DNA of 64,000 nucleotides from an uncultured Clostridia bacterium (GCA_944377145.1 CALWEH010000007.1:91099-155098), one strand, 5' to 3'. Positions 12,361-30,718 are shown, counted from the stretch's first letter. The notes: a model not told the origin generated them from the sequence alone. Numbers and translations: made by a program.

Positions 12361-12376
12361 TAAAAATGAGGGATAT

Positions 12377-15030: not shown

Positions 15031-15095
15031 TTAATTTGTAAAAATGTATAACAATTATATAAAAATATGTTATTCTATATATAAGGAGGGGAAGT

Positions 15096-15644
15096 ATGAA
15101 TGAATTGGAAAGAGAGACTTTAACTAGTACTAAAATAGATTCTGAAGTAAAAGAAAATGAATTTTCTTTAGAAAATCAAGAAATAAAACTTGATAATTTA
15201 CCAAGATATGAAGATTTAATTGCCCCTCAAATAAATACTAAATTAGATAATATGCAAGAGGTAGAAAATTTACCTTTGTTTGAACCTCGAAAAGAAGAAA
15301 AAGCTAAAAAACCTGCAGAAATTATTCAGCAAAAAAGGTTTAAAATTGCTGTAAGTACATTTGCTATTATTGGAGTTTTGCTTTTTGCTTGTGTTTTAAT
15401 AAACGGTGTGTCGCTTGCTATGTTGGCAAGAGATGTAGATGACAATAAAAATGATATAAATGCACTAACAGAAGAAGTTGAATCTCTTGAAAACCAAGGT
15501 TTTGACATAGATAGTGGGCTAATACAGGGTGGAGCTGAAAATATGAGTTATAAACTTGCACTTCCTAGGAATTATCCTGATAATACAGCAGATCTTACAT
15601 GGTTTGATAAACTTAGTATATTTTTAATGAAACTATTTGGTTAA
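15096..15644 (+). CDS. FtsL-like cell-division membrane protein
   Basis: Single TM helix followed by a coiled-coil segment. Located between rsmH and the PBP gene. Confidence 0.5.
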   Translation: MNELERETLTSTKIDSEVKENEFSLENQEIKLDNLPRYEDLIAPQINTKLDNMQEVENLPLFEPRKEEKAKKPAEIIQQKRFKIAVSTFAIIGVLLFACVLINGVSLAMLARDVDDNKNDINALTEEVESLENQGFDIDSGLIQGGAENMSYKLALPRNYPDNTADLTWFDKLSIFLMKLFG

Positions 15645-15681
15645 ATAGCATAAATAATGGGATTGTAAAATACAATTAAGT

Positions 15682-17598
15682 ATGAGTAAACTTAAAAGAT
15701 TTTACAATCTTTTTTCATTTCAAAAAAGAATATTTATAATTATAATAGCTTTTTTGTTAATTTTTTTCACTATTTTTTGTAGGTTGGGTTATTTAACACT
15801 AATATCAGGTAAAGACATTCAAGTGATGGCGGGAAGCCAATGGTTACGAGATTTACCTCTCTCAGCCAAAAGAGGTGATATATTAGATAAGAATGGTGTT
15901 CTTTTGGCTACAAGCAAAACTACATACGATATATATGTTAGAGCTAGAAGTGTAGATAGTCCAATAGAATTAGCAAAATTATTGAGTGAAAAATTAAATT
16001 TAGATTTTGATAAAACTTATGCAAAAGTTACTAATAAATCTGTATCTGAAACCCTTATTAAATTGCAGGTGGAAGAAAATACAGCTTTGTCTATAGTAGA
16101 AACAGGGGTGAAAGGAGTGTATTTATCTCAAAATGTAGGGAGGGTATATCCATACTCGAATTTACTCACTCAAGTTTTAGGATTTTGTTCAATAGATAAT
16201 GCAGGACAAACAGGATTGGAAAGTTATTATGATAAATATTTAAAGGGTGTTGATGGTAAAAGCTTGGTGCAAACCAATGCGCAAGGCTTAGAAATAGATA
16301 ATTCTTTAGCTTACTATATTCCAAGTATTGCAGGAGCTAATTTAACAACTACTATTGATATTTATTTGCAAATGATATTAGAGAAGTATTTGCAGGAAGC
16401 CTTAATTGAACATAAAGCTAAAAATGTTTCTGGAATAATATTAGATGCTACAAATGGAGATATTCTAGCTATGACTAATCTTCCAGATTTTGATTTAAAT
16501 AATATTCCTAGAGATAATCTAGAGGAGTTATTTGCCTTAAGTAAAAATACATCAGTGGTAGATGTATATGAACCTGGAAGTACTTTTAAAATAATAACTG
16601 TGGCGGCAGCTTTAAACGAAGGCTTAACTGATTTAGATGATTTGTTTTATTGCGGAGGAAGTTGTGTAGTAGATGGAGAAAGAATTAAATGCTGGAAAAC
16701 GCAAGGTCATGGCTCTCAAAATTTAATAGAAGGGTTTAAGAATAGCTGTAACTGTGTATTTGTGGAACTTGCTATGAGGCTTGGAGTAGATCGACTATAT
16801 AAATATATGGAAATGTTTGGTATAGGGTCTAAAACAGGAGTAGATATAGCTTCAGAAAGCTCTGGAATAGTTATGGCGAAAAATAGCGTGAAAAATGTTG
16901 ATCTAGCTCGCATAGGGTTTGGGCAATCAGTAGCTGTAACTGCACTACAATTAGCATCTGCATTTGGCTATATAACTACAGGCAAATTTGTAACACCACA
17001 TTTAATAAGTAATATATATACAAATTCTTCTACATTGTATAATTATACTCAAACTTTCAAAGATTTAGATTTAAAAGATGAAACGATTTCAGCTATAAAT
17101 AACATGTTGGCAAACAATATTAATACAGAAGGAAATTTTACCTTTGTTCCAGGTTATGATGTTGGAGGTAAAACAGGAACTGCTCAAAAGTTTGAAAATG
17201 GAGCCTTGGCAGTAGGAAAATATGTATCAAGTTTTATTGGAGTATATCCTACAAATAAGCCTAAATACATAGTATTTATAAGCGTGAATGAACCTTCAAA
17301 TGGAGCATATTATGGAGGAGTGGTAGCAAAACCTATTGGACAGAAAGTTTTTCAAGAAATGTTTACTGTAAAAAATATTCCGCCAGATGATGCTAGTCAG
17401 CTTGACAATCAACCTAATATTGAAATGCCAAATGTTGTAGGAAAAACAGTGGCAGACGCCTGTGCAGAATTGAAAGTTTTAGGATTGAATGTGAATGTAG
17501 ATGGTCTTGGAGGATATGTAATTAGTCAGTTACCTTTACAAGGTGTGAAAATATATGCTGGTGAAGAAGTTTTGATTAAAAGTAATGAAGTGAGTTAA
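15682..17598 (+). CDS. Class B penicillin-binding protein (FtsI/SpoVD type) with C-terminal PASTA domain
   Basis: STFK, SCN and KTGT active-site motifs, an N-terminal TM helix, and a PASTA-like tail (MPNVVGKTVADACAELKVLGLNV). Confidence 0.9.
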   Translation: MSKLKRFYNLFSFQKRIFIIIIAFLLIFFTIFCRLGYLTLISGKDIQVMAGSQWLRDLPLSAKRGDILDKNGVLLATSKTTYDIYVRARSVDSPIELAKLLSEKLNLDFDKTYAKVTNKSVSETLIKLQVEENTALSIVETGVKGVYLSQNVGRVYPYSNLLTQVLGFCSIDNAGQTGLESYYDKYLKGVDGKSLVQTNAQGLEIDNSLAYYIPSIAGANLTTTIDIYLQMILEKYLQEALIEHKAKNVSGIILDATNGDILAMTNLPDFDLNNIPRDNLEELFALSKNTSVVDVYEPGSTFKIITVAAALNEGLTDLDDLFYCGGSCVVDGERIKCWKTQGHGSQNLIEGFKNSCNCVFVELAMRLGVDRLYKYMEMFGIGSKTGVDIASESSGIVMAKNSVKNVDLARIGFGQSVAVTALQLASAFGYITTGKFVTPHLISNIYTNSSTLYNYTQTFKDLDLKDETISAINNMLANNINTEGNFTFVPGYDVGGKTGTAQKFENGALAVGKYVSSFIGVYPTNKPKYIVFISVNEPSNGAYYGGVVAKPIGQKVFQEMFTVKNIPPDDASQLDNQPNIEMPNVVGKTVADACAELKVLGLNVNVDGLGGYVISQLPLQGVKIYAGEEVLIKSNEVS

Positions 17599-17607
17599 GG
17601 AGGGAAT

Positions 17608-19062
17608 ATGAATTTACATCAACTTATTCAAAATGTTCAATTCAAAGGAATTAAAAATTATAAAGAACTTGAAATAGACAATCTATCTAATACAAGCAAA
17701 GAGAAAAATCCTAATGGAATATATTTTTGCTTAAAAGGAAAACTAGATGGTCATGATTATGCAAATGAAGCTATAGATAATGGTGCTGTATGCTTGGTGG
17801 TAGAAAGATTTTTAGATCTTCCAATTACCCAAATATTGGTTGAAAATGCAAGGCTTGCAATGTCTAGCATAAGTGCAAATTTTTATGAGTTTGATAAGTC
17901 TAAAATTAAATTTATAGGAATAACAGGAACAAATGGAAAAACAACTACTGCTTTTATAATAAAGCATATTTTACAAGGGTTAAATAAATCTGTAGGAATG
18001 ATTGGAACTGAGGGTGTATATATAAATAATTTGGCTCTGCCTGCTCAGTTAACTACTCCAGACCCTATAAAGCTTCATAAAATTATACATGATATGGATT
18101 TAAATAATATTGAATATATAGTTATGGAAGTTTCTGCCCATGCACTTGCATTAAATAAAGTGGATAGTATTATGTATGATGTTGTAGGAATAACAAATAT
18201 TACTCAAGACCATCTTGATTATTTTGCCAATATGAATAATTATGCTAGTGCAAAAGCAAAACTTTTTACATATAACCATGCCAAAAGGGCAATAATAAAT
18301 ATTGACGACAAATATACTAGAGCAATATTAAGACATTCTAATATTGAGAGTAAAACTTTGTCTGTACATTCACCTGCAGATATTATGGTTGAGGAAGATA
18401 ATTTTGACATGACAGGAACTAAAGCAATTATTAATATAAATGATAGAAATTATATGTTAAATACAAATCTTGTGGGAGAATATAATTTAGCTAATACTTT
18501 AATGGCAATAAGTATATGCAATGAATTAGGTTTTGAAGTGGGAGATATTTTAAGCTGTTTAAATAACGCAAAAATTTTTGTTCCTGGAAGATTAAATTTA
18601 ATTCCTCTTGAAAATAGGGCAAGTGCTATAATAGATTTTGCTCATACACCAGATGGAATGTATAAAGTACTTTCTACTTTAAATAAAATGAAAAAAGGCA
18701 AACTTATAGTTGTATTTGGTTGTGGCGGTAATAGAGATAATTCAAAACGACATAAAATGGGAGAGGTAGCAACCAAATTTGCAGATTATGTTATAGTTAC
18801 TAGCGATAATCCTAGATTTGAAAATCCTCAACAAATAATAAGTGATATTTTAAAAGGTGTTAATACTAACAAAACTATTAGTATTGAAAATAGAAAAGAT
18901 GCAATTAAATATGCAGTAACATTGGCAAAAGAAAATGATATAATAGCTATTTTGGGTAAAGGGAATGAGCCATATCAAGAGATAAATGGAGTAAAATATC
19001 CTTATAATGATTATGATGTGATTAAACAAATGTTTACAAAAGAAGCTGACTTAGATATTTAA
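17608..19062 (+). CDS. murE: UDP-MurNAc-L-Ala-D-Glu:meso-DAP ligase MurE
   Basis: GITGTNGKTTT P-loop and the DNPR motif (TSDNPRFE). Confidence 0.9.
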   Translation: MNLHQLIQNVQFKGIKNYKELEIDNLSNTSKEKNPNGIYFCLKGKLDGHDYANEAIDNGAVCLVVERFLDLPITQILVENARLAMSSISANFYEFDKSKIKFIGITGTNGKTTTAFIIKHILQGLNKSVGMIGTEGVYINNLALPAQLTTPDPIKLHKIIHDMDLNNIEYIVMEVSAHALALNKVDSIMYDVVGITNITQDHLDYFANMNNYASAKAKLFTYNHAKRAIINIDDKYTRAILRHSNIESKTLSVHSPADIMVEEDNFDMTGTKAIININDRNYMLNTNLVGEYNLANTLMAISICNELGFEVGDILSCLNNAKIFVPGRLNLIPLENRASAIIDFAHTPDGMYKVLSTLNKMKKGKLIVVFGCGGNRDNSKRHKMGEVATKFADYVIVTSDNPRFENPQQIISDILKGVNTNKTISIENRKDAIKYAVTLAKENDIIAILGKGNEPYQEINGVKYPYNDYDVIKQMFTKEADLDI

Positions 19063-19084
19063 TAAATTTAAAAGGAATATATTT

Positions 19085-20092
19085 ATGATTAAAGTTATTG
19101 TGGGTTTTATATTAAGTTTTTTAATTTCTCTAATTCTTATGCCTTTTATAATAAAATTAATACATAAACTTAGTTGCTCACAAACAATTTTAAAATATGT
19201 TGAAGAACATAAATCAAAACAAGGTACTGCTACTATGGGAGGGGTAGTATTCTTCTTATCTACACTAATTGTGGCGTTAATTATGATAGAATACAATACT
19301 CCTATAGCTGTATGTATTGGAGTTGGATTAGGTTTTTCATTAATAGGATTAATGGACGATTATATAAAGGTTCATTTTAAGCAAAATCAAGGGCTATTGC
19401 CATATCAAAAAATTATAGGACAAGTAGGCATTGCTGTTATTTTTGCTTGTTATATATATTTCTTTTCTCCTAATAAAGGAATAATATATTTACCATTTAC
19501 TTTTAAAGCTATTGATTTAGGAGTATGGGTTATTCCACTTGTTATAATTGTATGTTTAGCTACTACTAATAGTGTAAATTTAACAGATGGTTTAGATGGT
19601 TTGGCTGGTGGTGTGAGTGTATTTTATTCTGGGATAATGATTGCACTTATATCAATATTTGCTACTATAACATACAATTTAGGCTCAAGCGATAGTTTTG
19701 TAGCGATGTATCAAAATTTAGCTATTTTATTAGCTATATTTATGGGTTCAATTATGGCCTTTTTAATATTTAATACTAATAAAGCATCTATATTTATGGG
19801 AGATGTTGGCTCTTTAGGAATTGGAGGATTATTTGCTTCAACTGCCTGCTTAGCTGGATTTGAATTTATTTTGGCTATTATAGGTATTATGTTTGTAATA
19901 TCAGCTCTTTCAGTTATTATTCAAGTGGCATATTTTAAAAAGACAGGTAAAAGAATATTTAAAATGGCTCCTATACATCACCATTTTCAAATGTCTGGAT
20001 ATACAGAAGCTAAAATAGGATATGTTTATCAAATAATTACTCTTATAATAGGACTTCTAACTATATTATTAACTTTATGCTTTGCTTTTTAA
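19085..20092 (+). CDS. mraY: Phospho-N-acetylmuramoyl-pentapeptide transferase MraY
   Basis: NLTDGLDGLA, MGDVGSLGIGG, APIHHHF. Confidence 0.95.
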   Translation: MIKVIVGFILSFLISLILMPFIIKLIHKLSCSQTILKYVEEHKSKQGTATMGGVVFFLSTLIVALIMIEYNTPIAVCIGVGLGFSLIGLMDDYIKVHFKQNQGLLPYQKIIGQVGIAVIFACYIYFFSPNKGIIYLPFTFKAIDLGVWVIPLVIIVCLATTNSVNLTDGLDGLAGGVSVFYSGIMIALISIFATITYNLGSSDSFVAMYQNLAILLAIFMGSIMAFLIFNTNKASIFMGDVGSLGIGGLFASTACLAGFEFILAIIGIMFVISALSVIIQVAYFKKTGKRIFKMAPIHHHFQMSGYTEAKIGYVYQIITLIIGLLTILLTLCFAF

Positions 20093-20151
20093 ATAAATTT
20101 TGTAATTAAGTTATTAAATTTAAATTAAATTAATATATTTAAATATAATAT

Positions 20152-21258
20152 ATGATTAAGTCTTATAAGAATTCAATAATAATTGGTTTGTGTACAATAT
20201 TTTTAGTGATTGTTGGTATTGTAATGGTATATAGTGCCAGCAAATATTCTGCCACTTTAAATTATAACGACCAATTTTTTTATATGAAAAAACAGTTGAT
20301 TGGAGGAATATTAGGATTAGGTGCATTAATTGCAACATCTTTAATAAACCACAAAATATATAAAAAGTTTTATATTGTAGCTTATATAATTGGGGCTGTT
20401 TTATTGGCTTTAGTATTTGTTCCATTTTTATCAAAATCTAGTTATGGAGCTACACGCTGGATTAATATTGGAGGATTTACAATTCAGCCTAGTGAAATTG
20501 CTAAATTTTGTTTGGTTTTATTTTTAAGCGTAGTATTGTCTAAAGGAAAAGATATTAACAAACCAAGCAAATTGTTAACAGTATTATTTGCAGGGTTAAT
20601 TTATTGTGTTCTTATTATGTTAGAACCTAATATGTCTATTACAATTTGTGTTGGTTTAACAATAGTGTTTATGCTTTTTATGGGTGGGTTAAATATTAAA
20701 ACTTTTTTACTAGGTGCTATTCCTATAATATTATTAGGGGTAGGGTTGGTATTGCTTGAACCATATAGATTAAGGCGTATTGTAGCATTTATTAATCCTT
20801 GGGAAAATCCTTTAGAAGAAGGCTATCAACTAATACAATCTCTATATGCCATTTCAAGTGGAGGATTGTTTGGAGTTGGGTTATTTAATAGCCGTCAAGC
20901 ACAATTATTTTTACCTTTTGCTGAAAGTGATTTTATATTTTCTATTATATGTGAAGAATTAGGGTTTATTGGCGGAGGTATAATATTATTAATATATTTA
21001 TTATTAATAATTACTATTATAAAAACAGGAATAAAAGCAAAAAATAAGTTTTCAGCATTTTTATGCCTTGGAATTGCTAGTGTGTTAGGAATACAAACAG
21101 TGCTAAACATTTGCGTTGTATCAGGGCTAATTCCTCCTACAGGATTGCCTTTACCATTTATTTCAGCAGGTAGTACTTCAATAGTTGTATTTATGGCTGC
21201 AATGGGAATAGTTATAAATGTAGATAGGCAAAATAATAAAGTTGAAACTAATTCTTAA
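20152..21258 (+). CDS. ftsW: SEDS protein FtsW/SpoVE (peptidoglycan glycosyltransferase)
   Basis: 10-TM SEDS pattern (QPSEIAKF, ESDFIFSIICEELGFIGG, GLPLPFISAGSTS). Confidence 0.9.
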   Translation: MIKSYKNSIIIGLCTIFLVIVGIVMVYSASKYSATLNYNDQFFYMKKQLIGGILGLGALIATSLINHKIYKKFYIVAYIIGAVLLALVFVPFLSKSSYGATRWINIGGFTIQPSEIAKFCLVLFLSVVLSKGKDINKPSKLLTVLFAGLIYCVLIMLEPNMSITICVGLTIVFMLFMGGLNIKTFLLGAIPIILLGVGLVLLEPYRLRRIVAFINPWENPLEEGYQLIQSLYAISSGGLFGVGLFNSRQAQLFLPFAESDFIFSIICEELGFIGGGIILLIYLLLIITIIKTGIKAKNKFSAFLCLGIASVLGIQTVLNICVVSGLIPPTGLPLPFISAGSTSIVVFMAAMGIVINVDRQNNKVETNS

Positions 21259-21317
21259 TATATTATTAAAATTAACAATATTTTAACCTAAATGTTTTGT
21301 AATTCATATACTGAATT

Positions 21318-22580
21318 ATGAATACATATCAAGATAAGTTTATAATTATAGGTGGCAACAGTTTAAATGGTTGCATTAATGTTCAAACTAGCAAAAATTC
21401 TATATTACCAATATTAGCAGGTTGTGTGTTATGCGATAAACAAGTGGTTATAAAAAAAGTGCCTAAATTGCTGGATATTGATAATATGTTTAAAATTTTA
21501 CAAGGAATAGGGGTAAAGATTGTTGAGGGTGATGATGAATGTATTATAGATTCATCAAATATTTGCTCAAACACTCTTAACCAAGACTTATGCAAAACCC
21601 TTCGCTCTTCTATTTTTTTGTTAGGAGCTTTGCTTGCAAGAACTCGTCAAGCTGTTATTTCATATCCAGGTGGTTGCGATATAGGAAATCGTCCTATAGA
21701 TTTGCATTTAACAGGTTTAGAAGAATTGGGGGTTAAAATATTAAAACGCCATAGTTTAATATATTGCGATGCTAAAGATATGCATAGTGGTACAGTACAA
21801 CTTGATTTTCCAAGTGTTGGTGCCACAGAAAATCTTATGATGGCATCAGTATTTTTAAATGGGGTAACCATATTAAATAATGTTGCAAAAGAACCAGAAA
21901 TAGTTGATTTGCAAAACTTTTTAAATAGTATGGGGTGTAAAATTTCAGGTGCTGGCACTTCCCAAATTACTATAGAAGGTGTGAATAATTTACATAGTAC
22001 ACAATATACGCCAATAAGTGATAGAATAGTAGAGGGTACTTTGATGATTGCTACAGCTATTACAGGCGGAAATGTTGTGCTTAAAAATGCTAATTATAAA
22101 AATAATGAAAGTTTAATTGCAAAACTTTCGTCAGTTGGTTGTCAAATAGATGTTAAAAGTGATATAATAAATATAACTTCAAAAGGCAGACCTCAATCAA
22201 TAGATTTAATTGATACTCAAGTATATCCAGGTTTTCCAACAGATTTGCAAGCTCAAATGATGGCGCTACAATCTGTAAGTGATGGAGTTAGCATTATTTG
22301 TGAAAATGTGTTTGAAAACAGATATAAGCATGCAAAAGAATTGAATAAAATGGGAGCGAATATAATTTTGCGTGATAGAGTGGCTGTAATAAAAGGAGTA
22401 GATGAGTTAACTGGTGCTCCTGTAGATGCGTATGATTTGCGAGGAGGAGCAGGGTTAGTATTGGCTGGATTAAAGGCAAAGGGATATACAACAGTAAATA
22501 ATATATATCACATTGATAGGGGTTATGATCATTTTGAAAATATATTGAGTGAATTGGGTGCAGATATTAAACGAATATGA
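21318..22580 (+). CDS. murA: UDP-N-acetylglucosamine 1-carboxyvinyltransferase MurA
   Basis: Active-site loop PGGCDIGNRPIDLH and the overall EPT fold pattern. Confidence 0.95.
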   Translation: MNTYQDKFIIIGGNSLNGCINVQTSKNSILPILAGCVLCDKQVVIKKVPKLLDIDNMFKILQGIGVKIVEGDDECIIDSSNICSNTLNQDLCKTLRSSIFLLGALLARTRQAVISYPGGCDIGNRPIDLHLTGLEELGVKILKRHSLIYCDAKDMHSGTVQLDFPSVGATENLMMASVFLNGVTILNNVAKEPEIVDLQNFLNSMGCKISGAGTSQITIEGVNNLHSTQYTPISDRIVEGTLMIATAITGGNVVLKNANYKNNESLIAKLSSVGCQIDVKSDIINITSKGRPQSIDLIDTQVYPGFPTDLQAQMMALQSVSDGVSIICENVFENRYKHAKELNKMGANIILRDRVAVIKGVDELTGAPVDAYDLRGGAGLVLAGLKAKGYTTVNNIYHIDRGYDHFENILSELGADIKRI

Positions 22581-23458
22581 CAAAACGTTCAATTATTATA
22601 ACAACTAGTATTATTTTAGGTATATTGGTAGTTATCACCATATTATTTGGTGCTGTTTTTCGTGTGAGAAAAGTAAAAGTTGATTTTACACAAGATTTTT
22701 ATTATAAAGCTCAAATTAACGAAATAATATCAGCAAGTAATATAAAAAAGGGAGAGGGTATTTTTAGTGTAGACACAACTAAAGCAAAGGAAAATATTGA
22801 AAAAGAATTTCCTTATGCTCGTGTTGATGGAGTTAATTTAACTAGTTTTATTAGTGTAACAATATCTCTTTCTACTCGACAGCCTTTATATTATGCTGTA
22901 CAAGAGGGAATATACTATATTTTAGATGAAGATTGTAAAGTTTTAGATATTATTAATGATAGAGAAGAAGCAGAGAAGTATATTTGGCTAGAAAATGCTT
23001 TTGAAATTGGACAAGATGTAGAGGTTGGAGATTTTTTGAATGGAAATAATTCTTCTGCTTGTACAAAATTATATTTAGCTTTATATTCAAATGCTACTTT
23101 AAAGCTAAGAGATGTTGACAATGATGGAATTTTAGATGAGCATTATTTGGAAAGAGAGGATATGCTAAATGTTTTAGATAGTGTAGAATTTGCAACCCCT
23201 GTTGATGATTTAACTTATGGGAAAATTGATAAAATTATATTAACTACATCTTCAAATTATGGTGTAAAAATTGAAATAACAGATACATCAAGGCAACTTG
23301 ATTTAAAAGTAAATATGGCATTTTCAGCTTTGAGGAAATTGATAGAGGAAGATGAAAAAAATGGAACACAGTTAGCAAAAACGGGTAGCATTATAGTAAG
23401 ATATTCGTACGATGAAAATAATGCAATTAGTTTAGCTTGCGAGTATAGGCAAAGTTAG
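22577..23458 (+). CDS. ftsQ: FtsQ/DivIB-like cell-division protein
   Basis: N-terminal TM helix plus a POTRA-like segment. Positioned before ftsA. The start overlaps the murA stop (ATGA). Confidence 0.65.
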   Translation: MTKRSIIITTSIILGILVVITILFGAVFRVRKVKVDFTQDFYYKAQINEIISASNIKKGEGIFSVDTTKAKENIEKEFPYARVDGVNLTSFISVTISLSTRQPLYYAVQEGIYYILDEDCKVLDIINDREEAEKYIWLENAFEIGQDVEVGDFLNGNNSSACTKLYLALYSNATLKLRDVDNDGILDEHYLEREDMLNVLDSVEFATPVDDLTYGKIDKIILTTSSNYGVKIEITDTSRQLDLKVNMAFSALRKLIEEDEKNGTQLAKTGSIIVRYSYDENNAISLACEYRQS

Positions 23459-23625
23459 TTTGAATAAAGCACATAAGGTGCTTTATTTTTAAATAATTAT
23501 TCAAATTTAAATAGTGTAAATATAAAAAAATATATAAAAATATGTCAAAATTGCTCAAAAGTGTTTGACTTGTATATTTTAAATAAATTATAATATAAAT
23601 ATAAATTAGGCATTAAGGTGATTGT

Positions 23626-24732
23626 ATGAAAAATTTGACATACATTTTTGATATTGGGTCCTCTAAAATTAGCCTACTTGCATGCAATATACACAAAGGA
23701 AGGGCGATTATTGTAACTAGTGTTGAAAAGCTGTATGATGGTTTTATGGATGGAGAGTTTTTTTCCACTAATGATTTACCTGACATATTTAACGATATAG
23801 TGCAAAATATGAATGAAAAAATAGGTGGTAAAATTACTAGTGCATATATTGGTGTTCCTAGTGAATTTAGTGCTTGCGTTTGTAAAAGGGTTACACGGAA
23901 TTTCACGCAATCAAAAAAGTTGAATGAAGAAGAGATTGTTAAATTATTTGATGGGGTGAATGATTATTCTAAATATGCTGATTATACTGTAATAAATTAT
24001 AGTGCATTACAATACATCGCAGATGGGGTGCCTAGAAGGTCAATAGTAAATGTTCGCTTGAATGAACTTGTTATGGATTGTTCATATATTTTAGTGAAAA
24101 ATAGTTTTATAGAATTAATGCAAAATTGCTGTAAAAGATGTGGAATTGAGAGCGTAGACTTTGTTTCAACAGCTTTAGCTCAAGCTCAGCTTGTAATGCA
24201 AGATGTTGAAGATGTATTAAAGCCTGTTGCAATAGTTGATGTTGGGCATATTACTACAAGTGTGGCAATAGCTAAAGGAGAGGGATTATTAATGCTTAGT
24301 TCTTTCTCATTAGGAGGAGGGCATATTACTGCAGATTTAATTCAAATAGGTAACCAAAGCTATCAAGATGCAGAATTAATTAAACATAAAGTATCTCTTA
24401 CAATTCAAAGCAAGAAAGATGAAAGATATATTGTGTATAACAAAGGCAAAACAATTAGCACACTTATAAATATAACAAATGATATTGTTACTTCTAGGAT
24501 AGAAAATATAGCTCATGTTATAAATCAAGTATTAAGTGTAGACGATAGCTTTAAAAACATTCCAATTTATTTGACAGGTGATGGATTATGCAACTTTAGA
24601 GGAGTTAAAAATTTATTAGAAGTAGTTACAAATCGAAAAATATATATGTTTACAACGAATTTGGATAATGGAAAAGACAAATACCAAACATCAAAAATAG
24701 GATTAGCCAATTTAATAGGTGATTTAATATAG
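23626..24732 (+). CDS. ftsA: FtsA-like actin-family cell-division protein (short, divergent)
   Basis: Actin-fold phosphate motifs (FDIGSSKISLL, VDVGHITTSVAI, GDGL). Lies immediately upstream of ftsZ. Confidence 0.75.
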   Translation: MKNLTYIFDIGSSKISLLACNIHKGRAIIVTSVEKLYDGFMDGEFFSTNDLPDIFNDIVQNMNEKIGGKITSAYIGVPSEFSACVCKRVTRNFTQSKKLNEEEIVKLFDGVNDYSKYADYTVINYSALQYIADGVPRRSIVNVRLNELVMDCSYILVKNSFIELMQNCCKRCGIESVDFVSTALAQAQLVMQDVEDVLKPVAIVDVGHITTSVAIAKGEGLLMLSSFSLGGGHITADLIQIGNQSYQDAELIKHKVSLTIQSKKDERYIVYNKGKTISTLINITNDIVTSRIENIAHVINQVLSVDDSFKNIPIYLTGDGLCNFRGVKNLLEVVTNRKIYMFTTNLDNGKDKYQTSKIGLANLIGDLI

Positions 24733-24741
24733 GAGGTTATT

Positions 24742-25923
24742 ATGGAAGGTAATTATAACAATATATGTAACATTAAAGTAATAGGCGTTGGAGGAGCTGG
24801 TAATAATGCTGTAAATAGAATGATAGAAGCAGGAATTACAAGTGCTTATTTTGTAGCAGTTAATACAGATCAACAAGTGCTTAATGTGAGTAAGGCTGAT
24901 AAAACTATTACTTTAGGAGCTAAGATTACAAAAGGTTTGGGTGCTGGAGCAAGACCTGAAATTGGTAGAGCGGCAGTAGAAGAAAGCGAACAAGAAATAA
25001 AAGACATGTTAGAAGGTAGTAATCTAGTATTTGTTACATGTGGTTTGGGTGGCGGAACAGGTACAGGCGCTGCGCCAATTATTGCAAAATTATCTAAAGA
25101 AATGGGAATTCTTACAATAGGTGTTGTAACAAAACCTTTTGCTTTTGAAGGCGTAACAAGGCAAAGAAATGCTGAGCAAGGATTAAACGAATTGAGAAAA
25201 TATGTAGATACATTGGTTATTATTCCAAACGAAAAATTATCTAAAATTTTGAAGAAAGGTACTTCTTTGGTAGATGCTTTTAGATATGCGGATGATGTGT
25301 TGCGTCAAGGAATTCAAGGTGTGTCAGAATTGATTGTTAAACCAAGTTTAATAAATCTTGATTTTGCAGATGTATCTACAATTATGAAAAATAAAGGTTT
25401 AGCTCACATGGGCATTGGTAAAGGAAGAGGCGAGTATAAAACTATGGAAGCAGTTCGTCAAGCTGTTACAAGCCAATTATTAGATACATCTATAGAAGGT
25501 GCAACAGGTATTTTAATAAATATAACAGGCGGAAGAGATCTATCTCTTGCAGAAATATATGAGGCGGTAGATTTGGTAAGAGATGTAGTTGATAGTGAGT
25601 GTAATATAATATTTGGAGCTACTATTGATGAAAATATGAATGGAGAAGTTCAGGTTACAGTAATAGCTACAGGTTTTGATATGGATAAAAATGCTCAACA
25701 AGAAGAACAGTTAGCTAATAATTATAACAATATACCTAATATATCCAACAACGAGCAAATACCTCAAGAACAATATCAGGAAAATTTAGAAGAAAATGAA
25801 GAAGATGATTTTACAGATGAAAATCTAGAAGCCCAGGCAAAAATTGAAGACATCTCTTTTGATAGTAAAGTAGATATAGGAGATAGTTCAATTCCTCCAT
25901 TTTTACGCAAATTAAAAAAATAG
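24742..25923 (+). CDS. ftsZ: Cell-division GTPase FtsZ
   Basis: GVGGAGNNAVNRM, the GGGTGTGAAP signature, and the conserved C-terminal peptide IPPFLRK. Confidence 0.98.
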   Translation: MEGNYNNICNIKVIGVGGAGNNAVNRMIEAGITSAYFVAVNTDQQVLNVSKADKTITLGAKITKGLGAGARPEIGRAAVEESEQEIKDMLEGSNLVFVTCGLGGGTGTGAAPIIAKLSKEMGILTIGVVTKPFAFEGVTRQRNAEQGLNELRKYVDTLVIIPNEKLSKILKKGTSLVDAFRYADDVLRQGIQGVSELIVKPSLINLDFADVSTIMKNKGLAHMGIGKGRGEYKTMEAVRQAVTSQLLDTSIEGATGILINITGGRDLSLAEIYEAVDLVRDVVDSECNIIFGATIDENMNGEVQVTVIATGFDMDKNAQQEEQLANNYNNIPNISNNEQIPQEQYQENLEENEEDDFTDENLEAQAKIEDISFDSKVDIGDSSIPPFLRKLKK

Positions 25924-25924
25924 T

Positions 25925-25955
25925 AAAAACAGTTTGGATTTCCCAAACTGTTTTT
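25925..25955. terminator. Intrinsic terminator after ftsZ (bidirectional)
   Basis: A5-CAGTTTGG-loop-CCAAACTG-T5. Confidence 0.8.
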
Positions 25956-25957
25956 AA

Positions 25958-26158
25958 TTATTGACCTCTAGAATGACGAATTATTTTTTCAAGTAAAGCT
26001 ACAGCAAAATACATTCCAGCTGCTAGTGTGCAAAGAATTACAACACTTGTCATAACAAGGTCAAGGTTAAATACTTGCCCTCCATATATTAGCAGATATC
26101 CTATACCAGCTTTACAAGCTAAATATTCACCCATTATAGAGCCAATCCAAGTCAACAC
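25958..26158 (-). pseudogene. 5'-truncated duplicate of the 3' end of the ABC permease gene (last ~63 codons)
   Basis: 25958-26149 aligns without gaps to 28128-28319 (offset 2170). An in-frame TGA lies immediately upstream. No RBS, and the rest of the gene is absent. Confidence 0.9.
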
Positions 26159-26383
26159 TCAATAAGTCGCTTTTCAGAACCACAACATACAGCCATAAAT
26201 CAAACAATTAAAGCACAATATGTAGTATATTGCCACACAAAAGCGACAAATTGATAGGTTGTCATTAAGCCAATTTGACTTTTTATAGTGATGAGTTAGC
26301 GAAAAAGTGGATTTTTTTTAGAGTAAAATTTTCAAGAAAAAAGTATGTTTTTTATATAAAATGATACACTTTTTAAAAATATG

Positions 26384-26392
26384 TGTTATAAT
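26384..26392 (+). promoter_or_regulatory. Candidate extended -10 promoter P1 (TGtTATAAT)
   Basis: TGTTATAAT at 26384-26392 with a weak -35. It would produce an mRNA that includes the AGGAG RBS and the leader ORF. Confidence 0.4.
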
Positions 26393-26428
26393 AATATTGT
26401 CGAAAAATAAAAAAGTAGTTAAAAAGGT

Positions 26429-26457
26429 TTGACAGGGTAATAGGAGTTTGGGATAAT
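26429..26457 (+). promoter_or_regulatory. Near-consensus sigma-A promoter P2 (TTGACA-N17-GATAAT with TGg extension)
   Basis: TTGACA at 26429-26434, a 17-nt spacer ending in TGG, and GATAAT at 26452-26457. The predicted start is about 26463-26465, at the first repeat units. Confidence 0.55.
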
Positions 26458-26581
26458 GTTTACAAACAAACAAACAAACAAACAAACAAACAAACAAACA
26501 AACAAGGCTAATTACGCCTTAAATCTTTTTAACGCAATAAATATAAATTTAACACTAAACAATATGGTTGGACTTGTTTAG
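26456..26581 (+). CDS. Putative 41-aa leader peptide containing the tetranucleotide repeat (MF(TNKQ)3TNK ANYALNLFNAININLTLNNMVGLV)
   Basis: AGGAG at 26442-26446 lies 9 nt before ATG 26456. The ORF runs through the repeat and the terminator's 5' arm and loop, and stops at TAG 26579-26581 inside the 3' arm. It is mutually exclusive with a start from P2. Confidence 0.3.
   Translation: MFTNKQTNKQTNKQTNKANYALNLFNAININLTLNNMVGLV
26462..26505 (+). repeat. Perfect tetranucleotide microsatellite (ACAA)11, equivalently (CAAA)10 plus CAA
   Basis: Counted directly: 44 nt, no interruption, G- and T-free on the + strand. Confidence 0.98.
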
Positions 26582-26590
26582 TGTTTTTTT
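26551..26590 (+). terminator. Strong intrinsic terminator between the repeat unit and the lipoprotein gene
   Basis: Perfect 11-bp stem AACACTAAACA (26551-26561) / TGTTTAGTGTT (26575-26585), a 13-nt loop, followed by a T-run. Confidence 0.8.
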
Positions 26591-26637
26591 GTATTTAAAA
26601 TCAAGATTTAAGATAAAATAAATAAAAGGAGAAAAGA

Positions 26638-28077
26638 ATGAAAAAGAAATTATTAAGTTTTATTTTTGCAATTTGTTTGATTATTCCTGCTATGTTTATG
26701 CTAAGTGCTTGCACAAAAGAAGATGAAAGGTATTTTGAAGTTAAGTATAACTTGAATGGAGGAATTAATAGCGAACAAAATATAACAACTATAAAAGAAG
26801 ATGAAGATTTTATTTTAAGCGAACCAACAAGAGAGGGGTTTGTATTTGATGGTTGGTATGAATCAAAAACATTTGATGGTAATGCAGTAATACAGATTGA
26901 TGATATTGAAACAAATGTTGAATTGTTTGCGAAATGGTCACTTCCACAAAACACTAACAACGAATATATAATTTCAAATGTCGATACTTTGATATATTTG
27001 AAAGACAATAAAGATTTGTGGGATAAAAACTTTTCCCTTTCCAATTCTATTGATTTGGGTGGAATAATATGGGAAGGAATAGGAGATAGTTATTATCAAG
27101 GTTCTATGTATAATAAAGGATTTTCCGGAACATTTAAAGGAAATGGTTACACAATTTCAAATTTTAAATTAGAAATAAAATCATATTCACCATTTGTAAT
27201 GGAACATTATTTAAACAATAGGTGTGGGTTCTTTAATTATATAGACGGGGGAAAGGTTTCAGGCTTAAATCTATTTAATGTTAACATAAAAGGAAATTAT
27301 CAATTTGGTAGATTTAATGATTTCTGGGAAGGTGTTGTTATAATTGGTTGTTTGGCTGGATATTGTGATGGGATTGTAGAAAATTGTGATGTTATTGCTA
27401 GTGAAATTGATTTAAACATATATTCTGATATATATAATAATTTCTCGATAGGTGGTTTAATAGGTGGTGCTACTGTTGAAGGTAACTCAATTAAAAACTG
27501 TAAAGCATATTGTGATATAAATATAGATATTGCATTACCAGGCGGATATTCAACAAGTAATATGGACTGTGCAGGACTAATTGGAGGAACGAATTCTTCT
27601 GATGGTACTATATCCAATTGTTGTTTTGTTGGAGATATTGTTTGTAACCAATATAGTGCATCAAATAATACTGAAATGCATGTTGCAGGATTGGTCGCCA
27701 AATCATGGAGTATAATGTTTGAAAATTGTTTTGCAATATCAAATATTTCAGTAGTGGCAAATAGTTATTCCAAAACATATGTTGGTGGAATAAATGCAAA
27801 CGGAAGCTCTGAAAATAGTGATAGATTAAATAATTGTTTTTCTAAGATGATGGTTGATTATAGAGGGGCTGAGGAGATTTTATATAATCTACAGATTGAA
27901 GAAGAAATAAATGATTATTCGTCAAACTACTATGTAGATGATGATAGTTTATTTATTATAAATGGTGTGGTTTATAAATCAGAGATAGAAGAACTTACAT
28001 CATATACAACAATTAAAAATAATCTTAAAACAATTTGGGAAGAAAGTGGCTGGAACTGGCACGAATATCCATATTAA
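26638..28077 (+). CDS. Surface lipoprotein with a Listeria-Bacteroides (Flg_new) repeat and GLUG-like repeats
   Basis: Signal peptide with lipobox MFMLSAC. YNLNGG..LSEPTREGFVFDGWY..FAKW matches the Listeria-Bacteroides repeat. Reiterated GGLIGG / AGLIGG / AGLVA motifs resemble GLUG. RBS GGAG lies 6 nt before the ATG. Confidence 0.8.
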   Translation: MKKKLLSFIFAICLIIPAMFMLSACTKEDERYFEVKYNLNGGINSEQNITTIKEDEDFILSEPTREGFVFDGWYESKTFDGNAVIQIDDIETNVELFAKWSLPQNTNNEYIISNVDTLIYLKDNKDLWDKNFSLSNSIDLGGIIWEGIGDSYYQGSMYNKGFSGTFKGNGYTISNFKLEIKSYSPFVMEHYLNNRCGFFNYIDGGKVSGLNLFNVNIKGNYQFGRFNDFWEGVVIIGCLAGYCDGIVENCDVIASEIDLNIYSDIYNNFSIGGLIGGATVEGNSIKNCKAYCDINIDIALPGGYSTSNMDCAGLIGGTNSSDGTISNCCFVGDIVCNQYSASNNTEMHVAGLVAKSWSIMFENCFAISNISVVANSYSKTYVGGINANGSSENSDRLNNCFSKMMVDYRGAEEILYNLQIEEEINDYSSNYYVDDDSLFIINGVVYKSEIEELTSYTTIKNNLKTIWEESGWNWHEYPY

Positions 28078-28091
28078 CATTTAAATAAAAT

Positions 28092-28120
28092 AAAAAGAGA
28101 GCTCTAAACTCTCTTTTTTT
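28092..28120. terminator. Bidirectional terminator between the lipoprotein gene and the intact permease gene
   Basis: A-run-AGAGAG-loop-CTCTCT-T7. Confidence 0.7.
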
Positions 28121-28127
28121 GTATATA

Positions 28128-28937
28128 TCATTGACCGCGGGATTTGCGGATGAATTTTTCAAGTAAAGCTACAGCAAAATACATTCCAGCTGCTAGTGTG
28201 CAAAGAATTACAACACTTGTCATAACAAGGTCAAGGTTAAATACTTGCCCACCATAGATTAGCAGATATCCTATACCAGCTTTACAAGCTAAATATTCAC
28301 CCATTATAGAGCCAATCCAGCTTAAACCTACATTAACTTTTAAAGTAGATATTAAATCAGGAATACTTGCAGGTAAAACTACTTTGAAAAATATTTGAAA
28401 ACGATTTGCACCAAGTGATTTTAACAAATTAATAAGATTTTTATCAGTATTTAAAAATGCTGTTAATACATTTAGTGTTGTTACTATCACAACAATTAAT
28501 ATTGCCATGGTTATAATAGCTTTACTTCCAACACCCATCCAAATTATAATAATTGGACCAAGTGCAATTTTAGGCAAGCTATTAAGAGTAACTATAAAAG
28601 GTTCTAAATATTTTCTTAAATATTCGCTTAACCATAATACAATAGCTAAAGCTATTCCTATTCCTGTAGCCAAAGCAAAAGCATATAAAGTTTCTTTTAA
28701 AGTTATAAATGCATGCATAAATAATTCTCCAGTAGAATACAACTGTTTAAGAGTATCCCAAATTCTGCTAGGAGAGGAGAAAAAGAATACATCTATAAAT
28801 CCTGTTTTTGCTCCAACTTCCCATATTACAAAAAATAGAATAAGAGTAATTATCTGTAATATTATTATGCTTGATGTTTTAAGTCTGTTTATAGTTAAGA
28901 ATTTCTTATGTTCTGCAGAATAATTATTTTTTTTCAT
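28128..28937 (-). CDS. ABC transporter permease (NitT/TauT family, BPD_transp_1)
   Basis: Six TM segments and an EAA-like loop region. I prefer the start at MKKNNY (28937), which overlaps the ATPase stop; the ORF-track start at 29000 was rejected. Confidence 0.85.
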   Translation of the reverse strand: MKKNNYSAEHKKFLTINRLKTSSIIILQIITLILFFVIWEVGAKTGFIDVFFFSSPSRIWDTLKQLYSTGELFMHAFITLKETLYAFALATGIGIALAIVLWLSEYLRKYLEPFIVTLNSLPKIALGPIIIIWMGVGSKAIITMAILIVVIVTTLNVLTAFLNTDKNLINLLKSLGANRFQIFFKVVLPASIPDLISTLKVNVGLSWIGSIMGEYLACKAGIGYLLIYGGQVFNLDLVMTSVVILCTLAAGMYFAVALLEKFIRKSRGQ

Positions 28938-29691
28938 TTTGTATTTCTCCCCAAAGTTGATTAAATAAAGTTTCTGCTTCGGGCAAATTTCTTTTTTCAA
29001 AAGGTTTTAAATTTTTATCAAATTTTAATACATATACAGCTTTTAGCTTTGCAGGGCGGGAGGATAATACAAATATTTTATCTGACATGCTTATAGCTTC
29101 TTGTAAATCATGAGTAACTAATATAGCTGTCTTTTTTTCTTGTTTTATAATATTTGCTACATCATCACATACGCTTAAACGAGTTTGATAATCAAGAGCA
29201 GAGAATGGCTCATCTAATAATAAAATAGATGGATTTAAAGCTAAAGTTCTAATAAGTGCTACTCTTTGTCTCATTCCGCCAGACAATTCGTCAGGGCGTT
29301 TTTTCTTAAATTCTCCCAAGCCGTATTTATTTAATAATTTCATTGCTTTTTCACGATTTTCTTTAGTATTTTTGCCTTGAATTTCAAGTCCTAAAAATAT
29401 ATTTTTTTCAATATTGCGCCATGGCAATAAATTGTCTTTTTGAAACATATAGCCACATTGAGGCTTACGAGGATTTGGCGTACTACCATCAATTAAAACA
29501 GTTCCACTGCTAGGTTTTAATAGTCCTGAAATTAAGGATAAAATAGTTGTTTTTCCGCATCCGGAAGGGCCAATTATAGATACAAATTCACCCTTCAAAA
29601 TGTCAAAACTAATATCGTCAATAGCAAGAGTTTCACATTGCATACTATGATAAGTTAAACTTAAATTGCGTATTTCAATAACTTTATCCAT
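28924..29691 (-). CDS. ABC transporter ATP-binding protein (NitT/TauT family)
   Basis: Walker A GPSGCGKTT, signature LSGGMRQR, Walker B LLLDEPFSALD. Confidence 0.92.
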   Translation of the reverse strand: MDKVIEIRNLSLTYHSMQCETLAIDDISFDILKGEFVSIIGPSGCGKTTILSLISGLLKPSSGTVLIDGSTPNPRKPQCGYMFQKDNLLPWRNIEKNIFLGLEIQGKNTKENREKAMKLLNKYGLGEFKKKRPDELSGGMRQRVALIRTLALNPSILLLDEPFSALDYQTRLSVCDDVANIIKQEKKTAILVTHDLQEAISMSDKIFVLSSRPAKLKAVYVLKFDKNLKPFEKRNLPEAETLFNQLWGEIQNEKK

Positions 29692-29704
29692 TGTATGCTA
29701 CCTT

Positions 29705-30718
29705 TTAAACATTGCTTGCAAAAGTAGTGTTTACAGCGTCTGTATAAGCTACACGATTAGTTAACTCACCAGCATGCTCCATAATATCTTGAAGTTTGTT
29801 CCAAGCACTTTCTTGAAGAACAAAATCGCTTGCGTAAGCACCAATTTCAATGTAATTTCTTACAGCAGATACAATCAATTCATCACTAGTTGTGTTAAAA
29901 GATGGTTTTAAAGCAGAAATTAATTGAGAATCTGTTGCAATCATTAAATAGTCATAACCTTTTTGTAAAGCTCGCATAAATTTTTCAATTTTTTCAGGGC
30001 TGTTTTTCAAAAATGAGCTTGTTGCAGTAAATACGGTATAAGGAATGTTAGACACTTCTTCTCCAAACGCCGCCACAATTTTACCTGTGCCATCAAGTTC
30101 ACATTGACTAGCATTAGGTTCAAACATTGAGCAATAATCTCCAGTTCCTCCTACAAAAGTAGGAACAGTTAAGTTAAAGGCAACAGATAGATCTAAAATA
30201 GTATCCACACCTTCTCCTAATTCATCGCCAGTTTTTAATCCATATATTTCTTCTAAAATGTATTGAAGAGTCATGGCTGGCATTCCGCCTCGGCGTCCTG
30301 CAATAATGTGCTTGCCTTTTAAGCTTTCATAACTAAAAGTTCCTGTATTTTCTTCAGGTCTTCCTACTAAGAATGAACCGTCACATGCAGTAAGCTGAGC
30401 AAATATGACTGGAGCATTTTGCATTCCTTGATTACGCACGTATATCATTCCTTCAGGACCAAGTAGACCAATATCAGCACTTTTACTTGTAAGAGCAGTT
30501 GTAACAGTATCACTTCCTCCAGCATTTGTAAGTTCGATTTCAATGCCTTCTTCCTCAAAATAGCCATTGTTCATTGCTATATAAAGTGGGGCGTAGAACA
30601 GACTATGTGTAACTTCACTTACACGAATTACATTTGAGTCTTTATCTTTTCCACAAGCTGTTAACATCACTGAGAACAAGGATATTACTACAACTAATAA
30701 AATTGTAAGTTTTTTCAT
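29705..30718 (-). CDS. ABC transporter substrate-binding lipoprotein (NMT1/THI5-like)
   Basis: Lipobox LTAC, size and pattern typical of NMT1-type binding proteins, and first position in the operon. The substrate is unknown. Confidence 0.75.
   Translation of the reverse strand: MKKLTILLVVVISLFSVMLTACGKDKDSNVIRVSEVTHSLFYAPLYIAMNNGYFEEEGIEIELTNAGGSDTVTTALTSKSADIGLLGPEGMIYVRNQGMQNAPVIFAQLTACDGSFLVGRPEENTGTFSYESLKGKHIIAGRRGGMPAMTLQYILEEIYGLKTGDELGEGVDTILDLSVAFNLTVPTFVGGTGDYCSMFEPNASQCELDGTGKIVAAFGEEVSNIPYTVFTATSSFLKNSPEKIEKFMRALQKGYDYLMIATDSQLISALKPSFNTTSDELIVSAVRNYIEIGAYASDFVLQESAWNKLQDIMEHAGELTNRVAYTDAVNTTFASNV

Follow-up and report, generated by a model that had tools for sequence, protein, structure and literature searches.

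A strain-variable lipoprotein gene cassette apparently integrated at the 3' end of a transporter permease gene in an uncultured Clostridia bacterium

Examination of a 64-kb stretch of DNA from an uncultured Clostridia bacterium (GCA_944377145.1, contig CALWEH010000007.1, positions 91099-155098; hereafter the window) revealed a 2.17-kb segment, lying between ftsZ and the convergent permease gene of an ATP-binding cassette (ABC) transporter and bracketed by two copies of the permease 3' end, which appears to be a strain-variable gene cassette integrated at that 3' end. The cassette comprises a leader with a promoter, the gene of a surface lipoprotein, a terminator and a permease-tail copy of its own, 192 nt long. 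The window represents core chromosome of a lineage related to Candidatus Onthoplasma, with FtsZ 74-79% identical to that of named metagenome-assembled genomes (MAGs). On the left of the site lies the division and cell wall (dcw) cluster with ftsA and ftsZ as its last genes, and on the right, on the opposite strand, an NMT1-type ABC transporter operon encoding a substrate-binding protein, an ATPase and the permease. The main features of the site, in which the two kinds of permease end are termed type A and type B, are as follows.

24742..25923, plus strand: ftsZ, last gene of the dcw cluster and fixed left flank (Pfam Tubulin/FtsZ_C; identical or ~99% identical in all conspecific contigs)
25924..25956, no strand assigned: bidirectional terminator hairpin of ftsZ and the permease (terminator scan; same spacer in L022-L036)
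25958..26149, minus strand: left repeat copy, an orphan stub with the last 63 codons plus stop, native type A (...KIIRHSRGQ, stop)
26150..26176, no strand assigned: junction motif directly past the stub, the cassette's own left boundary, AGTCAACACTCAATAAGTCGCTTTTCA in the window
26150..26400, plus strand: conserved cassette leader with an extended -10 promoter, TGTTATAAT, at 26384-26392 (read from the sequence)
26638..28077, plus strand: cargo gene for a 479-amino-acid lipoprotein with a lipobox signal peptide
28092..28118, no strand assigned: bidirectional cassette terminator, stem AAAAAGAGAG-loop-CTCTCTTTTT
28128..28154, minus strand: foreign type-B (...KFIRKSRGQ, stop) last 8 codons plus stop of the working permease
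28155..28319, minus strand: inner part of the right repeat copy, 165 nt, matching the resident type apart from two single-nucleotide polymorphisms (SNPs; 28251 A, 28257 G)
28128..28937, minus strand: intact ABC-transporter permease, 269 amino acids, BPD_transp_1, completed by the right copy

The sole long direct-repeat family returned by the repeat search pairs 25957-26149 with 28127-28319 at a spacing of 2170 and 94% identity. A first-pass annotation made from the window sequence had aligned 25958-26149 with 28128-28319 at a constant offset of 2170, and both the repeat search and a base-by-base comparison agree with it; the latter also places the two mismatches reported for the inner 165 nt, at 26081 and 26087. 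The terminal 27 nt, for which 11 differences had been given, differ at 10 positions on recount (left-copy positions 25959, 25967, 25969, 25970, 25973, 25975, 25976, 25979, 25982 and 25984), one of which alters the stop codon (TAA vs TGA); these differences fall mainly at synonymous sites, with two amino acid changes among the last nine residues. Homology breaks off sharply on both sides of the repeat, at 26149/26150 and at the terminator-side flank, and 165 nt at 99% identity cannot be due to chance. The left copy translates to ...LLEKIIRHSRGQ and the right copy to ...LLEKFIRKSRGQ, each followed by a stop codon. As annotated, the left copy has an in-frame TGA just upstream, two codons before ...VLTWIGS, while the right copy completes an intact 269-amino-acid BPD_transp_1 protein ending in ...KFIRKSRGQ. 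At sites lacking the cassette, the majority permease allele has a 3' end that matches the left stub with 100% identity.

An assembly artefact has a negligible probability. Metagenome assemblies are the source of these sequences, and a repeat of 165 nt is longer than common k-mer sizes, but the same duplicated arrangement stands within single contigs, as long as 185 kb, of four or more other samples (L001, L002, L003 and L005) and a diverged version of it was found in two further samples. Moreover, the copies differ in their unique flanks and in the terminal 27 nt, and de Bruijn (Logan) contigs of the same strain (L004, L006 and L010) break about 56 nt into each copy rather than collapsing it, as expected of a true repeat.

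Empty sites, permease ends and sister species

Permease variants belonging to the same 90% cluster were looked up and yielded 16 contigs from different samples. In 13 of these (L022-L036) ftsZ is followed by a 34-nt terminator spacer and a convergent full-length permease gene with a type-A end, with nothing in between; the remaining three are short contigs that extend to the terminator. The spacer that divides ftsZ from the intact permease at these empty sites is occupied by the same terminator hairpin that lies at 25924..25956 in the window, and both flanks of the empty-site strains match those of the window at ~99% identity. The empty site that the annotation had predicted, a single permease 3' end beside the ftsZ terminator, is thus present within the same species in at least 13 contigs, and the duplication is not a feature carried by all relatives. 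Since the stub must derive from a full gene at that spot, an empty-type arrangement must have come before the occupied one.

Three strain types of the occupied site are referred to below: O1, the clone of the window, O2 (L037/L038) and O4 (L042/L044). Pairwise distances in the flanks are star-like, with O1 and O2 at least as far from each other as from the empty strains, and the cassette itself differs by ~1% between O1 and O2. Because of this star-like pattern and the ~1% difference between cassettes, the insertion is an old presence/absence polymorphism in a recombining species and no recent private event. In O4 the type-B end and the same terminator stem are found, but with a different convergent cargo gene. 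The O4 cargo (L042 3030-3425; L044 968-1343) is BspA/leucine-rich repeat (LRR)-like, with the C-terminus ...CYWHYDTDGVTPVIWEIGE before the stop; a homology search with the L042 cargo fragment, aimed at a contig spanning the locus, returned only a 77-amino-acid fragment.

Regarding the two permease ends, type A diverges from the sister species in the same manner as the gene body (~29%; 234 differences from L040 in 810 positions, evenly spread), with a ratio of nonsynonymous to synonymous substitution rates (dN/dS) of about 0.1 over the last 108 nt. Because of this body-like divergence and the low dN/dS, type A, as retained in the left copy, is the species' own functional permease end. The 27 nt of type B differ from type A at 10 positions and from the L046 allele, from a sister species, at 2 positions. 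The right copy of the O2 strains has a longer foreign tract of 107 nt, ~25% diverged from type A, which over positions 27-107 of the copy shows 3 differences in 80 from the sister L040, compared with 189 in 618 in the gene body. The foreign allele that the annotation had postulated for the right copy is thus borne out by both the type-B/L046 and the O2/L040 comparisons. Likewise, the terminator at which the right copy ends, also assigned to the cassette, has a stem (shared by L040, L042/L044 and L046) matching the terminator behind the permease in sister species. The foreign permease tail and terminator therefore arrived with the cassette. Neither GC content nor skew shows a discontinuity across the cassette, and composition is therefore uninformative on its foreign origin.

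The right copy passes from foreign to resident sequence at 27 nt in O1 and O4, at 107 nt in O2 and at less than 27 nt in L046; as these boundaries vary, homologous exchange fits them and no fixed core site is indicated. The left stub has no foreign part in either O1 or O2, and the right copies read foreign and then resident, with the boundary at 27 or 107 nt. The inner SNPs of the window, 28251 A and 28257 G, are the states of the sister species represented by L041 and are also present in the empty-site strain L025, while the L043 haplotype combines a type-B end with the absence of these SNPs. The permease of L025 equals the O4 permease (L042) except for the last 27 nt, which makes L025 a candidate for a site that lost the cassette by precise deletion across its repeats, although the pattern would look no different had the cassette been inserted into a strain like L025. 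Taken together, the boundaries, the inner SNPs and the L025 and L043 haplotypes show the repeat copies to be mosaics of repeated homologous exchange within the 192 nt.

A further contig, L039 (1-596; window-equivalent 25706-26149, then 28320-28357), has a resident stub of 230 nt beside ftsZ joined to unrelated DNA, which starts with the hairpin AAAAATCCACGGGTTATACCCGTGGATTTTT. This contig represents an independent insertion with another breakpoint in the same permease tail.

The truncated arrangement recurs in two sister species. In L046, the permease of which is 83% identical at the amino acid level, the order is ftsZ, LRR_5 cargo-2, terminator, permease stub, leader, LRR_5 cargo-1, terminator and permease, that is, two units in tandem with LRR_5 lipoproteins as cargo. 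In L041, an NCBI MAG of another sister species, the order is OGG, a gene for a 172-amino-acid lipoprotein, terminator, permease stub, a VCA0040-like gene and permease. In both, the stub breaks off at the very nucleotide at which the window stub does, after ...GAGCCWATCCA, and continues with AGAGGGCWCTCAATAAGYC, the form of the junction motif also present in the O2 strains (the conserved form is also written CCWATCCAAGAGGGCWCTCAATAAG). The identical truncation nucleotide and motif were found in L037/L038, L045, L046 and L041. L046 additionally shares ~250 nt more of the leader, including the TGTTATAAT promoter and 32 nt that have been lost from the window, and the window leader is 79-83% identical to the leaders of L037 and of unit 1 in L046. 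The left context of the stub differs by species, being the ftsZ terminator in the window, the terminator of the second cargo in L046 and the 172-amino-acid lipoprotein gene by OGG in L041, and each stub retains its own species' context downstream of the permease end. Across species the cassette-type arms have 3-10 differences in 80 nt, the native alleles 15-19 in 80. Because the same cut and motif occur in different species with different cargo and left context, the junction belongs to the mobile unit and travels with the cassette, and the unit has probably entered pre-existing permease ends at least three times.

Probable mechanism of integration and alternative explanations

Integrase, transposase and recombinase domains were searched for in all open reading frames (ORFs) of at least 150 amino acids in the window, and none were detected in these or in the cassette; statements on missing mobility genes apply to the 64 kb that were analysed. 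The cassette encodes one gene, that of the lipoprotein. No terminal inverted repeats were detected, inverted matches between the two 80-nt ends of the cassette reaching 6 nt at most, and no second copy of the cassette or the lipoprotein gene was found in the window. In these respects the first-pass annotation, which had noted no recombinase, transposase or terminal inverted repeats, proved correct. The cassette had no match in phage and plasmid collections, and its leader and junction had none in scans of IMG/VR.

The reading favoured here, with a probability of roughly 0.6, is that the cassette, equipped with a 192-nt homology arm, enters and leaves the permease site and forms stacks by homologous recombination, without a recombinase of its own. 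The copy of the permease tail would act as the homology arm, and recombination between this arm and the chromosomal permease tail would insert the whole unit and duplicate the 192 nt. The native tail would be left as a dead stub adjoining the ftsZ terminator, while the permease gene would be re-completed with the tail and terminator brought by the cassette, such that the transporter stays functional. The flanking direct repeats would then permit deletion, restoring the empty site, as well as release of a circle, stacking of a second unit and transfer to another genome with a conserved permease tail. The insertion polymorphism, the native and foreign ends, the junction common to several strains and species with different cargo, the mosaic copies and the lack of mobility genes in the window are shown directly. 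The circular intermediate, the sufficiency of RecA-type homologous recombination alone and a route by which the DNA passes between cells are what we infer from these.

The annotation had proposed a single crossover between the resident gene and a circular DNA that carried a 3' fragment of a foreign allele. The empty site, the foreign end and the junction support such a model, with two corrections: the architecture recurs in at least two sister species and is thus no one-off event, and the window copy is a mosaic altered by later recombination rather than the pristine product of one crossover. A junction of the kind predicted for a circle is present in contig L045, in which the lipoprotein 3' end, terminator, type-B end and repeat are followed by the left end of the cassette, although this contig is 704 nt long with a coverage of 2.8x and fits a tandem array or a mis-join equally well. 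At positions 672-704 of L045 (the first 33 nt of its reverse complement) the lipoprotein match to the window is lost upstream of window position 27730, which suggests a recombinant lipoprotein variant or a contig-end error.

Several points weigh against recombination through the arm as the whole explanation. No circle was seen directly, the L045 junction being open to a reading as a tandem array or as a mis-join within the 165-nt repeat. Perfect matches of the native type-A tail to the sister-type arms extend to no more than 12-26 nt, which is marginal for RecA-type exchange, and direct integration across species would therefore be rare. The left stub of O2 is 100% resident, where a crossover with a fully foreign arm predicts foreign inner bases; either the donor arm must therefore have been chimeric already, coming from a conspecific donor, or the foreign bases must have been erased by gene conversion afterwards. 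Finally, a junction motif of ~20-25 nt has been kept in L041 though the rest of the leader differs, and could be the recognition site for a recombinase encoded elsewhere. The part of the genome analysed is 64 kb, and any competence genes or unlinked recombinases beyond it are outside this view.

Such a site-specific recombinase encoded elsewhere, moving the cassette as an integrase-less satellite comparable to a cis-mobilisable or an Xer-exploiting element, is rather improbable as the explanation. The junction motif together with the permease position would then form the recognition site, and the long repeat would be the permease tail included in the attachment site. Both the cut of the stub at an identical nucleotide in three species and the persistence of the motif in L041 speak for it, and the targeting of gene 3' ends with a replacement end is typical of integrase-mediated integration. 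The foreign/resident boundaries, however, vary (27, 107 and under 27 nt) instead of marking one core, no second copy of the motif, direct or inverted, was found at the other end of the cassette or at the empty site, L039 has a different breakpoint, at 230 nt, joined to unrelated DNA, and no recombinase gene was detected in the window. One founding cassette spread by homologous recombination predicts the conserved junction equally well. That conserved junction is likewise what would be expected if the duplication had arisen once, in a common ancestor, and been inherited vertically, with cargo swapped by double crossovers in the two flanks in the manner of a minimal mobile element, empty sites arising only by deletion between the repeats and no integration of circles. 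This history, to which the star-like, recombining flanks (O1 and O2 being no closer to each other than to the empty strains, with cassettes ~1% apart) and the different cargo between the same flanks also lend themselves, is nevertheless unlikely. The species-specific left contexts of the stub fit separate integrations into pre-existing gene ends, the stub needs a full gene at that position and thus an empty-like state that came first, the type-A end has remained under purifying selection with body-like divergence and without pseudogene decay, and the native alleles differ more between species than the cassette-type arms do.

Finally, the junction at 26149/26150 may have been made by a one-off illegitimate end-joining event in this lineage, either by homology-facilitated illegitimate recombination or by interchromatid integration, in which one end of a linear foreign fragment recombined within the permease tail while the other was joined to a sister chromosome or a broken end. 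The purely resident left stubs of O1 and O2 are as this predicts, transformation-driven interchromatid exchange yielding duplications has been documented (PMC3784515), and L039, with its 230-nt stub and unrelated DNA, indicates that new junctions do arise at the permease gene. The presence of the same junction nucleotide and downstream sequence in two other species with different cargo, however, indicates that the junction was not made in this lineage, and as an explanation of the window this event is very improbable; for the birth of the first cassette and of the L039 type, illegitimate end-joining is plausible.

Beyond homologous recombination through the arm at this one site, a more far-reaching reading is possible, although it should be regarded as tentative. 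It holds that the locus represents a recombinase-independent cassette system, consisting of conserved leader, promoter and signal peptide, variable cargo, terminator and a fixed 192-nt arm, that may integrate, circularise, stack and cross species by host homologous recombination alone. The arm would target the most conserved stretch of a housekeeping permease gene and always repair its target, and in its function the system would resemble an integron for surface-protein genes, minus the integrase.

Cargo, leader and genomic setting

The remaining features of the cassette and of its right flank are given below.

26401..26618, plus strand: extra block of ~218 nt that the L046 leader lacks, immediately before the lipoprotein gene
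26429-26457, plus strand: near-consensus promoter in the extra block
26456-26581, plus strand: possible 41-codon ORF with a ribosome-binding site, spanning (ACAA)n and stopping inside the 3' stem of the terminator
26462-26505, plus strand: (ACAA)11 in the extra block
26504-26520: small hairpin in the extra block
26552-26584, plus strand: terminator hairpin with U tract in the extra block
28924..30718, minus strand: remaining transporter operon, fixed right flank, conserved in all strains and in the sister species
28924-29691, minus strand: transporter ATPase
29705-30718, minus strand: NMT1-type substrate-binding lipoprotein

The cargo lipoprotein has one Flg_new (List_Bact_rpt) domain (Pfam PF09479) and a GLUG-like repeat region. 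It is a near-orphan, for which the best matches outside the species reach at most 37% identity over 21% of the protein; further matches at 28% identity are GLUG-motif proteins. The DNA encoding its signal peptide is 84-89% identical to that of the different cargo genes in L046 and L041, and this conserved stretch could be a second, internal recombination point for exchanging cargo bodies. Ribosome-binding site and signal-peptide DNA (MKKKLLSFIFAICLIIP...) are alike at 26621-26715 of the window, 9717-9805 and 8298-8360 of L046 and 10747-10797 of L041.

Within the leader, 32 nt (GGGATAGTTACATTCAACAAAAGTCGCTTTTT) that are present in the O2 strains and in L046 are missing from the window between 26321 and 26322. 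Over the first ~180 nt of the leader O1 and O2 diverge much more than in the lipoprotein gene. A short repeat of the leader, AAGTCGCTTTT, was considered and set aside, having no copies elsewhere in the window beyond chance. At the other end of the cassette, the type-B end (28135-28149) contains on the plus strand a GC-rich hairpin, CCGCGGGATTTGCGG, followed by a T-rich run, and the type-A end has no such hairpin; the lipoprotein gene could in this way be followed by another terminator-like signal, located within the last codons of the permease.

The (ACAA)n tract of the extra block comprises 11 units in assemblies of O1 and 14 in those of O2. With 8, 11 or 14 units the small ORF ends in the 3' stem of the terminator, while other counts place its stop 40-60 nt earlier. 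This suggests that the block may act as a frame-dependent, translation-coupled read-through switch for expression of the lipoprotein, which remains a proposal because the start codon of the small ORF overlaps the -10 box of the best promoter. A purely RNA-structural rheostat is not supported, as the predicted stability of the downstream terminator is unaffected by the number of (ACAA) units. Rfam returned nothing above gathering thresholds in the window and nothing for the promoter, repeat and terminator block; a weak match to rli61 (E = 0.29, 20.9 bits against a cut-off of 50) lies on the wrong strand and was discarded.

Regarding the wider setting, sequences of this organism appear to be confined to ENA and Logan data, and neither the ftsZ-terminator/type-A junction nor the conserved cassette junction had a match in JGI metagenome scans. 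In sister genomes found via ftsZ (FtsZ 74-79% identical) synteny stops directly past ftsZ, and no empty site was obtained from them; in other sister species the transporter lies nowhere near ftsZ. A pair of RsmD-like and OGG genes (window 11818-13204; L041 10948-12460) adjoins the lipoprotein and permease-stub region in L041, while in the window it is parted from the permease by a 194-amino-acid ORF and the entire dcw cluster (14104-25923). Because the gene neighbours there differ among species, the DNA past the permease 3' end is a rearrangement boundary across the genus.

Comparison with known systems

Gain of genes without mobility genes is usually ascribed loosely to recombination in the flanks, and the circular-intermediate model of tip displacement, put forward for rhs genes, has since remained a hypothesis. 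The locus described here is an unusually clean natural test case, with empty sites, two diverged versions of the cassette and alternative cargo within one species, in which there are also a junction that may be that of a circle or array and an allele that may stem from precise deletion; the sister species add the same junction with other cargo. If the favoured reading is correct, any short copy of a conserved gene end could make adjacent DNA self-targeting, reusable and harmless to its target, providing a simple route for the spread of variable surface proteins in uncultured gut Clostridia and a category of mobile DNA overlooked by searches based on integrases and transposases.

Several known classes of mobile DNA differ from the cassette in their defining features. 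An integron would have an IntI integrase, an attI site and promoterless cassettes bounded by attC; no integrase and no attC-like imperfect palindrome at the ends were found here, and the cassette has promoters of its own. Regarding transposons, insertion sequences and miniature inverted-repeat transposable elements, there are no terminal inverted repeats, no transposase and no other copy in the window. Integrase-encoding islands and prophages are alike in that a replacement 3' end keeps the target intact, direct repeats flank the insert, and empty and occupied sites coexist in a species. Unlike these, the cassette measures only 2.17 kb, has no integrase (tyrosine or serine recombinase) in itself or in the 64 kb, and is bounded by mosaic repeats of 165-192 nt with variable foreign/resident boundaries rather than by a short identical core, although recombination acting in trans could still apply. 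As the defining features were looked for and are absent, the cassette is no integron, transposon or integrase-bearing island.

Closer likenesses are found among events of homologous recombination. In an Escherichia coli conjugation study, DNA with homology on one side entered the chromosome for the most part through a single crossover after circularisation, with 109-950 bp of the homologous end duplicated (PMC3240628). Such Campbell-type insertion-duplication shares with the cassette the direct repeats of target homology, the one copy truncated where the incoming fragment ended and the lack of need for a site-specific recombinase, and the present locus has an insert flanked by direct repeats of its target gene, an empty site in relatives and a truncation junction borne by the cassette itself. 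Insertion-duplications of that kind are, however, laboratory events with engineered DNA, whereas the cassette is natural, polymorphic and apparently reusable, preserves its target, forms arrays and has spread among strains and species. The minimal mobile elements of Neisseria (Saunders and Snyder, 2002; PMC3787668), in which alternative whole-gene cassettes or none are found between conserved genes and the exchange is attributed to homologous recombination in the flanks, resemble the cassette in having alternative gene content within the same flanks and no mobility genes; here, too, ftsZ and the permease, at a flank identity of ~99%, enclose either nothing, the Flg_new lipoprotein gene or BspA/LRR-like cargo. 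Those elements have no duplicated end of a flanking gene and no orphan stub, and need both flanks, whereas here 192 nt of one flank are present twice, one of the copies being a stub, and a single arm could suffice for the unit to integrate.

Another close parallel is the displacement of Rhs C-terminal ends, for which a two-step model with a circle and a single homologous crossover has been proposed (Jackson et al., 2009; PMC2935791). As with the cassette, the incoming unit supplies some of the conserved portion of the resident gene together with a new 3' end and further genes, no dedicated recombinase takes part, the old 3' end is kept downstream as a silent, dissociated tip, and repeated events give rise to arrays. 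Such an old tip is retained here as the type-A stub, and likewise in L046 and L041, and the new tip was acquired laterally. The differences concern the target, the tips and the payload. In Rhs systems the swapped tip of an rhs gene of enterobacteria carries a new toxin domain and an immunity gene, and the core fragments vary in length, whereas the target here is a BPD_transp_1 permease gene of an ABC transporter in a Gram-positive-type Clostridia lineage, the tips are near-synonymous and functionally equivalent with no toxin/immunity module, the 192-nt arm and the junction are fixed across three species, and what is delivered is a distinct surface-protein gene, transcribed convergently from a promoter of its own. 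By analogy, the cassette would thus work like Rhs displacement and yet stand outside the rhs family because of its permease target, its equivalent tips and its separate payload gene.

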